Origin: Escherichia coli
Lineage (GTDB): Bacteria; Pseudomonadota; Gammaproteobacteria; Enterobacterales; Enterobacteriaceae
Length of the DNA stretch: 33,046 bases
NCBI RefSeq assembly: GCF_003334815.1
Contig: NZ_QOWO01000041.1
Strand: one strand, 5' to 3'
Positions 5,890 to 8,574 of the stretch are shown here, one piece after another; positions within the stretch are counted from its first letter, which is position 1, and the number at the start of each line of letters is the position of its first letter. A program made the position numbers and the translations under genes. The notes beneath the pieces are model-generated. The model searched no databases, was not told where the DNA came from, and worked only from the letters and a program-made list of their open reading frames with translations.

Positions 5890-6108
5890 ATGTACTTGAC
5901 ACTTCAGGAGTGGAACGCACGCCAGCGACGCCCAAGAAGCCTTGAAACAGTTCGTCGATGGGTACGCGAGTGCAGGATATTCCCTCCTCCGGTTAAGGAT
6001 GGAAGAGAGTATCTGTTCCACGAATCAGCGGTAAAGGTTGACTTAAATCGACCAGTAACAGGTAGCCTTTTGAAGAGGATCAGAAATGGGAAGAAGGCGA
6101 AGTCATGA
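5890..6108 (+). CDS. xis: Excisionase Xis (72 aa)
   Basis: MYLTLQEWNARQRRPRSLETVRRWVRECRIFPPPVKDGREYLFHESAVKVDLNRPVTGSLLKRIRNGKKAKS recognised as lambda Xis. Overlaps the int start by 23 nt as in lambda. Confidence 0.9.
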   Translation: MYLTLQEWNARQRRPRSLETVRRWVRECRIFPPPVKDGREYLFHESAVKVDLNRPVTGSLLKRIRNGKKAKS

Positions 6109-7156
6109 GCGCCGGGATTTACCCCCTAACCTTTATATAAGAAACAATGGATATTACTGCTACAGGGACCCAAGGACGGGTAAAGAGTTTGGATTAGGCA
6201 GAGACAGGCGAATCGCAATCACTGAAGCCATACAGGCCAACATTGAGTTATTTTCAGGACACAAACACAAGCCTCTGACAGCGAGAATCAACAGTGATAA
6301 TTCCGTTACGTTACATTCATGGCTTGATCGCTACGAAAAAATCCTGGCCAGCAGAGGAATCAAGCAGAAGACACTCATAAATTACATGAGCAAAATTAAA
6401 GCAATAAGGAGGGGGCTGCCTGATGCTCCACTTGAAGACATCACCACAAAAGAAATTGCGGCAATGCTCAATGGATACATAGACGAGGGCAAGGCGGCGT
6501 CAGCCAAGTTAATCAGATCAACACTGAGCGATGCATTCCGAGAGGCAATAGCTGAAGGCCATATAACAACAAACCCTGTCGCTGCCACTCGCGCAGCAAA
6601 ATCAGAGGTAAGGAGATCAAGACTTACGGCTGACGAATACCTGAAAATTTATCAAGCAGCAGAATCATCACCATGTTGGCTCAGACTTGCAATGGAACTG
6701 GCTGTTGTTACCGGGCAACGAGTTGGTGATTTATGCGAAATGAAGTGGTCTGATATCGTAGATGGATATCTTTATGTCGAGCAAAGCAAAACAGGCGTAA
6801 AAATTGCCATCCCAACAACATTGCATGTTGATGCTCTCGGGATATCAATGAAGGAAACACTTGATAAATGCAAAGAGATTCTTGGCGGAGAAACCATAAT
6901 TGCATCTACTCGTCGTGAACCGCTTTCATCCGGCACAGTATCAAGGTATTTTATGCGCGCACGAAAAGCATCAGGTCTTTCCTTCGAAGGGGATCCGCCT
7001 ACCTTTCACGAGTTGCGCAGTTTGTCTGCAAGACTCTATGAGAAGCAGATAAGCGATAAGTTTGCTCAACATCTTCTCGGGCATAAGTCGGACACCATGG
7101 CATCACAGTATCGTGATGACAGAGGCAGGGAGTGGGACAAAATTGAAATCAAATAA
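6086..7156 (+). CDS. int: Tyrosine integrase Int (356 aa), lambda type
   Basis: MGRRRSHERRDLPPNLYIRNNGYYCYRDPRTGKEFGLGRDRRIAITEAIQANIELFSG... recognised as lambda Int. C-terminal catalytic region with HxxR...Y (HELRSL ... HLLGHKSDTMASQY). Confidence 0.95.
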   Translation: MGRRRSHERRDLPPNLYIRNNGYYCYRDPRTGKEFGLGRDRRIAITEAIQANIELFSGHKHKPLTARINSDNSVTLHSWLDRYEKILASRGIKQKTLINYMSKIKAIRRGLPDAPLEDITTKEIAAMLNGYIDEGKAASAKLIRSTLSDAFREAIAEGHITTNPVAATRAAKSEVRRSRLTADEYLKIYQAAESSPCWLRLAMELAVVTGQRVGDLCEMKWSDIVDGYLYVEQSKTGVKIAIPTTLHVDALGISMKETLDKCKEILGGETIIASTRREPLSSGTVSRYFMRARKASGLSFEGDPPTFHELRSLSARLYEKQISDKFAQHLLGHKSDTMASQYRDDRGREWDKIEIK

Positions 7157-7244
7157 TGATTTTATTTTGACTGATAGTGACCTGTTCGTTGCAACAAATT
7201 GATAAGCAATGCTTTTTTATAATGCCAACTTAGTATAAAAAAGC
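7157..7244. other. attL (P' arm with Int arm-type sites plus 15-bp core TTAGTATAAAAAAGC), prophage/chromosome junction
   Basis: 7230-7244 is the reverse complement of the lambda att core GCTTTTTTATACTAA. 7157-7229 matches the lambda P' arm (TTTTGACTGATAGTGACCTG, i.e. CAGTCAAAA and AGGTCACTAT arm sites). Flanking GCAGGCTTCA matches the bacterial attB arm next to ybhC. Confidence 0.8.
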
Positions 7245-7290
7245 AGGCTTCAACGGATTCATTTTTCTATTTCATAGCCCGGAGCAACCT

Positions 7291-8574
7291 GTGAACACAT
7301 TTTCAGTTTCCCGTCTGGCGCTGGCATTGGCTTTTGGCGTGACGCTGACCGCCTGTAGCTCAACCCCGCCCGATCAACGTCCTTCTGATCAAACCGCGCC
7401 TGGTACCTCTTCTCGCCCGATTCTGTCGGCAAAAGAAGCGCAGAATTTCGATGCTCAACACTATTTTGCATCCCTGACACCAGGTGCTGCAGCGTGGAAT
7501 CCTTCCCCGATTACCCTGCCTGCGCAACCTGACTTTGTTGTCGGCCCGGCGGGCACTCAAGGTGTAACGCATACCACGATTCAGGCGGCGGTAGATGCGG
7601 CAATTATCAAGCGTACCAACAAGCGCCAGTATATTGCCGTGATGCCTGGTGAGTATCAGGGAACGGTATATGTCCCTGCCGCTCCGGGTGGAATTACTCT
7701 GTACGGTACAGGTGAAAAACCGATTGATGTGAAGATTGGGCTTTCCCTTGATGGTGGCATGAGCCCTGCCGACTGGCGTCACGACGTCAACCCGCGCGGC
7801 AAATATATGCCAGGTAAACCAGCGTGGTATATGTACGATAGCTGCCAGAGCAAACGCAGCGACAGTATCGGTGTTCTCTGCTCTGCGGTCTTCTGGTCAC
7901 AAAACAATGGCCTGCAACTGCAAAATCTGACCATCGAAAACACGCTGGGCGATAGCGTAGATGCAGGTAACCATCCGGCGGTGGCACTGCGTACTGATGG
8001 TGACCAGGTACAGATTAACAACGTTAACATTCTCGGTCGTCAGAACACCTTCTTTGTCACCAACAGCGGTGTGCAGAACCGTCTGGAAACGAATCGTCAG
8101 CCGCGTACGCTGGTGACCAACAGCTACATTGAAGGGGATGTGGATATCGTTTCTGGTCGCGGCGCAGTGGTGTTCGATAACACCGAATTCCGCGTGGTGA
8201 ACTCACGTACTCAGCAAGAAGCGTATGTGTTTGCACCGGCTACGCTGTCCAACATTTACTACGGTTTCCTCGCCGTAAACAGCCGTTTCAATGCTTTCGG
8301 TGATGGTGTGGCGCAACTGGGCCGCTCGCTGGATGTTGATGCCAATACCAACGGTCAGGTGGTGATCCGTGATAGCGCCATCAACGAAGGTTTTAACACG
8401 GCTAAACCGTGGGCCGATGCGGTGATCTCTAATCGTCCGTTTGCGGGTAATACCGGCAGCGTAGATGATAACGACGAAATACAGCGCAATCTGAATGACA
8501 CTAACTACAACCGCATGTGGGAATACAATAACCGCGGCGTGGGTAGTAAAGTGGTTGCAGAGGCGAAGAAGTAA
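7291..8574 (+). CDS. ybhC: YbhC outer-membrane lipoprotein, pectinesterase-fold acyl-CoA thioesterase family (427 aa)
   Basis: GTG start with GGAG RBS; lipobox LTAC in MNTFSVSRLALALAFGVTLTACSS. Length and position match E. coli ybhC next to attB. Confidence 0.9.
   Translation: MNTFSVSRLALALAFGVTLTACSSTPPDQRPSDQTAPGTSSRPILSAKEAQNFDAQHYFASLTPGAAAWNPSPITLPAQPDFVVGPAGTQGVTHTTIQAAVDAAIIKRTNKRQYIAVMPGEYQGTVYVPAAPGGITLYGTGEKPIDVKIGLSLDGGMSPADWRHDVNPRGKYMPGKPAWYMYDSCQSKRSDSIGVLCSAVFWSQNNGLQLQNLTIENTLGDSVDAGNHPAVALRTDGDQVQINNVNILGRQNTFFVTNSGVQNRLETNRQPRTLVTNSYIEGDVDIVSGRGAVVFDNTEFRVVNSRTQQEAYVFAPATLSNIYYGFLAVNSRFNAFGDGVAQLGRSLDVDANTNGQVVIRDSAINEGFNTAKPWADAVISNRPFAGNTGSVDDNDEIQRNLNDTNYNRMWEYNNRGVGSKVVAEAKK

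Follow-up and report, generated by a model that had tools for sequence, protein, structure and literature searches.

Where an integrase gene, an excisionase gene and attL lie intact beside a host gene, can the prophage still leave the chromosome, and does transcription of int run on into its neighbor? Both had been proposed in an earlier note for the ybhC junction of the window, the whole stretch of 33,046 nucleotides of Escherichia coli DNA analyzed here. A defective, cryptic prophage of the lambda family occupies the classical lambda attachment site, with ybhB/bio on one side and ybhC/gal on the other; window 1-7244 covers its int-proximal third, and 5890-7300 its xis-int-attL end. The explanation that best fits the evidence jointly, and that we consider very probable, is that of a defective lambda prophage with an intact recombination module that is nearly silent, and whose insertion is likelier to have cost ybhC expression than to have added to it.

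Nucleotides 29843-27724 of lambda (J02459) match window 5125-7244 at 98.9% identity, which indicates homology and not chance resemblance. The nearest relative, strain 52F4, shows 100% identity with the window over 78-9000 and differs from it by two SNPs in 25.7 kb of host DNA; PGAP calls an excisionase, an integrase and ybhC in 52F4, the same as in the window. According to the open reading frame list and the sequence, xis, int and ybhC are all on the + strand, and xis, the upstream gene, overlaps int, as the lambda excisionase gene does; here the overlap is 23 nt. The start codon of ybhC, which is co-directional with int, is GTG. All positions given in the earlier note for xis, int, the P' arm with the core, and this GTG were confirmed (Table 1). 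Its distance of 47 bp from core to start codon is correct, as 46 nt lie between the core end at 7244 and the GTG at 7291.

Table 1. Window coordinates of features at the int-proximal prophage end and its junction with ybhC
Feature	Position	Strand	Basis or remark
Deletion junction	2977..3165		ybcO' (DUF1364 remnant), 190-bp filler, truncated exo; compared with the FDAARGOS_1248 prophage
Terminator-like hairpin and T run, ea8.5/orf55 gap	5612..5641	+	Stem 5612-5633, 9 pairs, tail TTTTTTATCT
Terminator-like hairpin and T run	5840..5867	+	Stem 5840-5859, 8 pairs, tail TTTCTTGCGT
pI promoter region, overlapping the xis start	5860..5905	+	cII-binding repeats TTGC-N6-TTGC at 5866-5879
xis, excisionase, 72 aa	5890..6108	+	ORF; WP_001303849.1 in the identical stretch of 52F4
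int, lambda-type tyrosine integrase, 356 aa	6086..7156	+	ORF; WP_000533643.1 in 52F4
P' arm of attL	7157..7229		100% identical to the lambda P' arm
15-bp common core	7230..7244		Exact reverse complement of the lambda core GCTTTTTTATACTAA
Downstream half of the 38-nt block, 20 nt kept	7230..7249	+	Upstream 18 nt moved to attR
Bacterial B arm and ybhC leader	7245..7290	+	Shine-Dalgarno GGAG at 7281-7284
ybhC (outer-membrane lipoprotein / putative acyl-CoA thioesterase)	7291..8574	+	ORF; PGAP annotation in 52F4

Int and Xis are full-length proteins, as had been claimed. Int is identical to lambda Int (J02459) at 353 of 356 residues, with H164P, A245T and I248V as the only substitutions, and it retains both the arm-binding domain at the N terminus and a core-binding domain with lambda specificity. 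A check for point mutations at catalytic positions found none: R212, K235, H308, R311, H333 and the nucleophile Y342 are all present at the lambda positions (6 of 6). Xis shares 71 of 72 residues with lambda Xis, the single substitution being G59S. That attL carries its core and arm sites also proved right. Window 7157-7244, comprising P' arm and core, is identical to lambda; identity stops at 7245 with the start of the bacterial B arm, and from there on the sequence is identical to the attB side of K-12. An empty site rebuilt from these parts is 100% identical to that of K-12 MG1655, and the core sequence of the window is also found unchanged at attR of 52F4. From the lambda att map we take the arm-type Int sites P'1-P'3 to lie at about 7157-7186 and the IHF site H' at about 7184-7212; the annotation of J02459 places an 'int 4' binding site over the end of int. 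The locus thus resembles a lambda lysogen of K-12, with which it further shares the ybhB/ybhC site, the order xis-int-P'-core-B, the orientation towards gal and an identical pI. Judged by sequence comparison, Int, Xis and attL are structurally intact, and the recombination hardware on this side is essentially that of lambda.

Unlike lambda, however, the window prophage is without pL, nutL, N, cI, cro, cII, O, P and most morphogenesis genes. Its lambda homology is limited to 3161-4587, 4811-4921 and 5125-7244. The homology stops at 3161 inside a truncated exo, which a 190-bp filler links to ybcO', rusA and quuD, so that pL, nutL, N and cII must be absent. The deletion between exo and the nin region removed pL, nutL, N, cI, cro, cII, O and P, and everything from bet through P is missing. 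An IS10/ISVsa5 end at window 1-77 interrupts the late region. The 52F4 prophage, about 22 kb long, lacks a repressor, N, O and P; the genes listed as partial in its PGAP annotation are exo, ybcO, terminase, J and lom, and a terminase'-J' fusion is present. The related and less deleted prophage of FDAARGOS_1248 likewise has no immunity region, which implies that decay was stepwise.

These deletions bear on whether the element could be a complete, inducible lambda prophage, in which pL and N would drive Xis and Int, transcripts would escape from sib, and excision and read-through into ybhC and gal would follow. Although identity to lambda is 98.9-100% across int, xis and attL, and there is published precedent for gal-side read-through, or escape synthesis (PMC2147009), such a prophage is extremely improbable here. 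It is refuted by the gene order in window 1-5900, where the truncated exo is joined to ybcO'/rusA/quuD and bet through P are missing, and it is equally at odds with the ~22-kb prophage of 52F4 with its terminase'-J' fusion and with the late region broken by an IS10 end. The window instead belongs with the cryptic or 'grounded' prophages, for example DLP12, Rac and Qin of K-12 and the defective Sp elements of O157 Sakai, which are decayed lambdoid elements that have kept int and xis, and with which it shares an IS insertion and stepwise deletions. Its late region is DLP12-like (essD, rrrD, rzpD, quuD, rusA, ylcG, an nmpC-like porin and bor). It differs from DLP12, which lies at argU, in its use of att-lambda and in the lambda specificity of its Int, and from the O157:H7 copy at the same site, in which int is frameshifted, in that its int is intact.

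With pL, N, cII and the rest of the early region deleted, the regulated expression that drives the module in lambda is absent: Xis and Int are made there from pL with N antitermination, and pL, nutL and N are all missing here. On the + strand, three terminator-like hairpins precede xis, the last of which (5840-5859) ends 30 nt before the xis ATG. The only recognizable promoter is pI, which lies in a segment (5779-5930) with zero mismatches to lambda; its activator gene, cII, is absent from the prophage. Lambda pI is cII-dependent and starts inside xis, so that it yields Int without Xis. A consensus scan of 2800-7100 found no promoter-like site on the + strand; a promoter-like ATGACA-16-CAAAAT occurs at 7116-7143, within the last part of int. 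Scans of this type could miss a weak constitutive promoter.

Transcripts arriving from upstream would meet intrinsic terminators without N to override them, leaving xis and int close to silent, and pI, which lacks its activator cII, would in any case supply Int but not Xis. Strong transcription in the int direction, and hence read-through or Xis-dependent excision, is not expected, given the loss of the early control region, the hairpins upstream and the dependence of pI on cII with no Xis produced. The earlier note had held that excision depends only on attR and on expression. Int, Xis and attL are indeed intact, but with the early control region gone, expression is no longer a free variable.

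The proposal that int-direction transcripts run across attL into ybhC also holds in part. The 134 bp that separate the int stop from the ybhC start yielded no terminator, and 7157-7290 neither a sib-like nor a terminator-like hairpin. For 7120-7310 the predicted RNA fold is unremarkable (z = -1.8), its one feature being an AU-rich hairpin in which the core pairs with its inverted copy in P' and which no U tract follows. The path into the co-directional ybhC is thus free of terminators, but no strong promoter feeds it. Little transcription would reach the gap between int and ybhC, although nothing in its 134 bp would stop a transcript that did.

As for the retroregulatory site, 52F4 carries sib/tI (GCATTAGCGCAAGGTGATTTTTGTCTTCTTGCGCTAATTTTTT) at attR, across att from int, and attR, the P arm and sib/tI of that strain are identical to lambda at 439 of 439 positions. 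In this near-identical prophage, integration has therefore separated int from sib, as the earlier note had stated and as happens in a lambda lysogen, where sib/tI moves to attR. The arrangement is that of the sib retroregulation system: int transcription runs towards attL, sib/tI stays behind at attR, and no terminator precedes the host DNA. That int is parted from sib in the prophage, and that read-through from pL, or escape synthesis, reaches the gal side, are classical findings (PMC2147009), and the gal-side genes b0770-b0771, ybhD and gal rise on lambda induction even with replication-defective phage (PMC2147009). The classical read-through, however, requires pL and N antitermination, both deleted from the window prophage; the phenomenon thus fits intact lambda lysogens and not obviously this remnant. 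The idea is textbook lambda biology that is not new and that fits the window prophage only partly. Among 5426 complete E. coli genomes, the int-attL-ybhC junction occurs in 1861 and the empty site in 3492; with the junction in about one-third of these genomes, its presence restates known biology and matters little in itself.

Evidence on attR comes from 52F4, since the window begins inside the prophage and its own attR lies outside it. With an attR identical to lambda, as in 52F4, the element is probably excisable when Int and Xis of lambda specificity are supplied, but nearly silent when left alone. In FDAARGOS_1248 the P arm of attR has diverged and the core has one mismatch at its edge. The IS10 junction (window 1-420) has no match among complete RefSeq E. 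coli genomes, so IS10 may have rearranged or removed the window's own attR. Defective lambdoid prophages with intact int can be excised and circularized (PMC2669165), and cryptic ones are still excised at low rates or with help (PMC2669165). Given an intact attR, the element would be predicted to excise when Int and Xis come in trans, as from a superinfecting or co-resident phage. Because this cryptic prophage keeps a complete recombination module of lambda specificity, a lambda-type helper might mobilize or cure it.

That int and xis survived several rounds of deletion intact could be a sign that they are still in use, which counts against a near-silent element. The module might have been kept by selection as a reversible switch or mobilization handle, through satellite-like excision or transfer with the help of phages of lambda specificity or through excision that restores the upstream element of ybhC under some condition; the element would take with it the porin, bor, the lysis genes and the cargo in the b region. 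We regard this as improbable. Both genes are full length after at least two rounds of internal deletion and an IS insertion, synonymous changes account for 5 of the 6 differences from lambda in xis and for 4 of the 7 in int, attR of 52F4 is perfect, and co-resident phages can excise, package and transfer defective prophages (PMC2669165). The synonymous bias may nevertheless predate the decay and stem from the time of the active phage, neither a xis promoter nor evidence of excision was found, and the frameshifted int pseudogene of O157:H7 indicates that retention of int is not universal. The near-silent remnant that we favor would behave like other 'grounded' lambdoid prophages, being stable, with self-excision rare or absent.

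A side result goes beyond textbook lambda biology: att-lambda lies inside a deeply conserved block. This block of the ybhB-ybhC intergenic region comprises 38 nt (CTTCCCGTTTCGCTCAAC-TTAGTATAAAAAAGCAGG-CT) and spans B', core and B. At the 18 nt whose conservation was not forced by the search, every column is at least 90% conserved across 70 species representatives from about a dozen genera. The flanks are 30-60% conserved and cannot be aligned between genera; in every case 34-47 nt separate the block from the ybhC start downstream.

Several identities for the block and the ybhC leader were considered and rejected. On inspection of the sequence and the alignment, the block does not fit a sigma-E, sigma-28, sigma-32 or sigma-54 promoter in spacing, dyad symmetry or conservation pattern, and the same three criteria speak against a MerR-type (CueR-like) operator, a small ORF, an sRNA or a terminator. 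Rfam returned no known RNA family at att, either in the window at the gathering threshold or in three empty-site loci at E<=1. RNAalifold paired no bases of the ybhC leader into a conserved RNA structure, and a hint from individual sequences was weak and phylogenetically non-independent. For a sigma-70 promoter of ybhC in 7157-7290, a consensus scan was empty and position weight matrix candidates were no better than background.

Does insertion, then, mainly lower ybhC? This would follow if the core lay inside a native promoter or regulatory element and read-through compensated only partly for its loss, which we consider a real possibility, although the chances are against it. Near-invariance of the 38-nt block across at least 70 species representatives, at its fixed 34-47 nt from ybhC, points in this direction, as do published data on E. 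coli 83972. There a 12.5-kb cassette had been placed, without loss of any DNA, 16 nt upstream of the core (a position taken from primer sequences), and ybhC was the most strongly down-regulated gene (log2 -3.4, -3.0 and -1.6). These data suggest that a cut just upstream of the block lowers ybhC mRNA 8-11 fold. The best sigma-70-like candidate in attB, TTTACC-18-TAGTAT with its -10 inside the core, drops in score from 8.1 in attB to 4.0 in attL. The value of 8.1 is, however, within background, whose 90th percentile is 8.7, and the candidate -35 is not conserved in the Kosakonia/Buttiauxella group. Furthermore, the drop in 83972 could reflect blocked bioA-ybhB read-through or a trans effect of LsrR, the latter being its authors' own reading. 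Our literature searches turned up nothing usable on ybhC transcription start sites or regulators, and no comparison of ybhC between lysogens and non-lysogens.

Insertion of the prophage swaps the conserved DNA just upstream of the core, and loss of a native input to ybhC would be likelier than a gain by read-through. The main effect of insertion on ybhC may thus be a native upstream element lost rather than read-through gained. We advance only tentatively, as a rather unlikely proposal, that att-lambda lies inside a nearly invariant 38-nt element, that the DNA upstream is needed in cis for ybhC, and that every prophage of lambda specificity, carried by about a third of complete E. coli genomes, cuts this element at the core and lowers ybhC. 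Were this so, a cis effect on a host gene would be inherent in lambda-type lysogeny, transcription in the int direction or from the P' arm would be the source of residual ybhC mRNA in lysogens, and laboratory insertions at att-lambda, a very common practice, would lower ybhC likewise. ybhC, a constitutive lipoprotein gene, is in use as a stable qPCR reference gene and has been linked to H2O2 tolerance. The down-regulation of ybhC and the H2O2 sensitivity in 83972 attB::lsr may, on the same premise, be an artifact of insertion and not an effect of the inserted genes.

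The stretch holding the xis-int-attL module, window 5125-7244, matches phage lambda (J02459) 29843-27724 at 98.9% identity, and the identity ends at 7245, the first position of the bacterial B arm. Judged from the sequence, this resemblance is one of homology and not of chance. Compared with lambda, Int has three residue changes (H164P, A245T, and I248V) and Xis has a single one (G59S). The earlier note had described Int and Xis as full-length, attL as carrying its core and arm sites, and the GTG start of ybhC as lying 47 bp past the core; the comparison with lambda agrees, with 46 nt intervening between core and GTG. 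A check for mutations in the catalytic residues of Int found none, since R212, K235, H308, R311, H333, and Y342 are all kept. An 11-bp perfect inverted repeat, GCTTTTTTATA and TATAAAAAAGC, is formed by a copy in the P' arm (7211-7221) and one in the core (7234-7244).

Coordinates of features in the window and of the conserved block at two other loci
Feature	Position	Strand	Remark
Prophage porin gene	651-1733	+	OmpC annotation in identical 52F4 sequence
Terminator-like hairpin	4263-4281	+	
Terminator-like hairpin	5612-5633	+	
Terminator-like hairpin	5840-5859	+	30 nt before xis ATG
xis	5890-6108	+	ORF
int	6086-7156	+	ORF
P' arm (arm-type and IHF sites) and core	7157-7244		identical to lambda J02459
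Lambda common core	7230-7244		exact match to reverse complement of GCTTTTTTATACTAA
38-nt attB/ybhC block, window part	7230-7249		
38-nt block, locus L015	567-604		
38-nt block, locus L058	4077-4114		
ybhC start, GTG	7291	+	134-bp gap after int
Tandem REP/BIME-type repeats	8590-8784		between ybhC and ybhJ
naRNA4 unit	8643-8713	-	one REP unit reaching Rfam gathering score
tRNA array and RtT element	32728-33046		right window end

In lambda, N-antiterminated pL transcripts are the sole source of Xis, and pI, which requires cII, starts inside xis and thus yields Int alone. The pI DNA of the window is identical to that of lambda; pL, nutL, N, and cII are deleted from the prophage. A scan of the + strand between 2800 and 7100 found no promoter-like site, and three terminator-like hairpins lie upstream of xis. 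The int-xis module is thus probably close to silent, and spontaneous excision is expected to be rare. The earlier proposal that excision depends just on attR and on expression holds insofar as the recombination parts at this end, cis and trans, are intact, but the regulatory region needed for expression is gone. Lambda-specificity Int and Xis provided in trans should excise the element, given an attR as in strain 52F4, where core, whole P arm, and sib/tI hairpin directly follow ybhB and are identical to lambda at 439 of 439 positions. In the related prophage of FDAARGOS_1248, by contrast, the P arm of attR has diverged and a single mismatch stands at an edge of the core, so that attR quality differs among relatives. 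Such excision behavior has been documented in O157 Sakai, where the PCR test suggested in the earlier note was applied to defective lambdoid prophages (PMC2669165). Whereas the window int is intact, its homolog at att-lambda of O157:H7 F7508 (L111 1697-2763) is a frameshifted pseudogene; int intactness is therefore specific to lineages and not a rule. The F7508 Xis protein is identical to Xis of 52F4 (WP_001303849.1), the xis DNA of which is 100% identical to that of the window.

That int and sib become separated in the prophage state is textbook lambda biology. Transcripts in the direction of int had been proposed to cross attL into ybhC, and the geometry would permit this: int and ybhC are co-directional, a scan of 7157-7290 found no terminator-like site, and the predicted RNA fold of 7120-7310 is unremarkable. 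However, the driving promoter is deleted. In this respect the remnant differs from induced lambda, for which prophage transcription into the gal side is already classical, with b0770-b0771, ybhD, and gal up even with replication-defective phage (PMC2147009). Overall, the earlier interpretation was partly right, and textbook, but it overlooked the loss of the regulatory region underlying both proposed effects. The int-xis-attL observation is real and its biology is already known; the sole lead beyond the textbook is a conserved attB/ybhC element, possibly disrupted by every att-lambda insertion.

Scanning species-representative genomes with the 18-mer CCTGCTTTTTTATACTAA (B arm and core) gave 105 stretches (L006-L110), 78 of them with a ybhC-like start following, the 18-mer lying 34-47 nt upstream of it. 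These 78 loci are from Citrobacter, Enterobacter, Lelliottia, Leclercia, Kosakonia, Phytobacter, Buttiauxella, Cedecea, Pseudescherichia, Silvania, Salmonella arizonae/diarizonae, and Escherichia. Next to the 18-mer, on its upstream side, lie 18 nt that the search did not force; each of their columns is at least 90% conserved, and they read CTTCCCGTTTCGCTCAAC at 59 of the 78 loci. Lambda attB lies inside a 38-nt block, CTTCCCGTTTCGCTCAAC followed by TTAGTATAAAAAAGCAGG and CT, that across about a dozen genera of enterobacteria is near-invariant upstream of ybhC and that is split by prophage insertion. Directly outside the block, on both sides, conservation is 30-60% and the genera are not alignable. 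In most genera a C stands beside the core, as in lambda P', so that the identity with attP is 19 bp long. A few loci hold P' arms that are lambda-like or diverged, namely those of E. albertii, Escherichia sp. E1V33, C. amalonaticus, and S. arizonae. In C. amalonaticus and S. arizonae, the diverged P' arms of the prophages at this site, like the inverted repeat of core and P' arm in the window, contain copies of the GCTTTT..AT motif. The block matched no known Rfam family, and the ybhC leader gave no consensus RNA structure, the per-sequence test providing a weak hint only. The best sigma-70-like candidate of the empty site, TTTACC-18-TAGTAT, has a -10 that falls within the core and does not score above background; its score is 8.1 in the empty site and 4.0 in attL.

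Published data on E. coli 83972 bear on the effect of insertion. Recombineering put a 12.5-kb cassette "next to attB" in this strain, and the supplementary primer sequences place it between ...TTTTTACCT and TCCCGTTTCGCTCAAG..., 16 nt upstream of the lambda core with nothing deleted (PMC12263705). In the resulting attB::lsr strain, ybhC showed the strongest down-regulation of any gene in each of the three growth phases (log2 -3.4, -3.0, and -1.6), its mRNA dropping 8-11 fold, which the authors credit, together with H2O2 sensitivity, to the inserted lsr genes (PMC12263705). Otherwise, ybhC is stable enough for use as a reference in qPCR (PMC3903629). An explanation at least as simple, and one that the authors do not consider, is that the insertion acts in cis, and the drop is compatible with a cis requirement for upstream DNA. 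A lambda-type insertion cuts nearer ybhC than this cassette, and loss of upstream input to ybhC is therefore more likely than a gain by read-through. A literature search found neither transcription start sites for ybhC nor any comparison of lysogens with non-lysogens. If true, the cis effect would extend to other att-lambda insertions that cut ybhC off from sequence upstream of the core. Among 5426 complete E. coli genomes, 1861 contain the int-attL-ybhC junction (at least 80% of the query covered) and, at the same coverage, about 1990 contain the xis-int-attL module alone; 3492 have the empty ybhB-attB-ybhC site. Reconstruction of the empty site gives a sequence 100% identical to K-12 MG1655.

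The window is 100% identical to 52F4 over 78-9000. The 52F4 prophage, of about 22 kb, is plainly defective: its exo, ybcO, large terminase subunit gene, J-type tail tip gene, and lom are partial, and it has no repressor, N, O, or P. Lambda homology within the window is limited to 3161-4587, 4811-4921, and 5125-7244, and at the deletion junction a 190-bp filler (2977-3165) connects truncated exo with ybcO', rusA, ylcG, quuD, and the porin gene. The FDAARGOS_1248 prophage is less deleted yet is also without the immunity region, ren' lying directly against exo, which points to stepwise prophage decay. The filler has a 37-bp inverted match elsewhere in that prophage (L004 26562-26598). The porin gene, nmpC/lc-like by its position adjoining quuD and lysis genes, appears intact and is encoded on the other strand from the late genes. 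Beside attR, the b region of 52F4 (L001 21742-24206) carries an AAA-family ATPase gene and then an HNH endonuclease gene, a pair that looks like a two-gene anti-phage defense cassette. Window positions 1-77 are the terminal 77 nt of IS10/ISVsa5 (IS4 family), inserted between essD and the porin gene. This junction was found in no complete RefSeq E. coli genome, and the source strain is thus closely related to 52F4 and has one additional IS insertion.

To the right of the prophage, ybhC is followed by ybhJ, ybhI, ybhH, ybhD, pgl, ybhA, modCBA, acrZ, modEF, galETKM, gpmA, and aroG, and further on by nadA and the tRNA array. Over 25.7 kb of host DNA, the window differs from 52F4 by 2 SNPs and by one unit of the tRNA array (about 105 bp), which is the sole structural difference over 25.9 kb; the matching tRNAs of 52F4 are annotated as tRNA-Lys.
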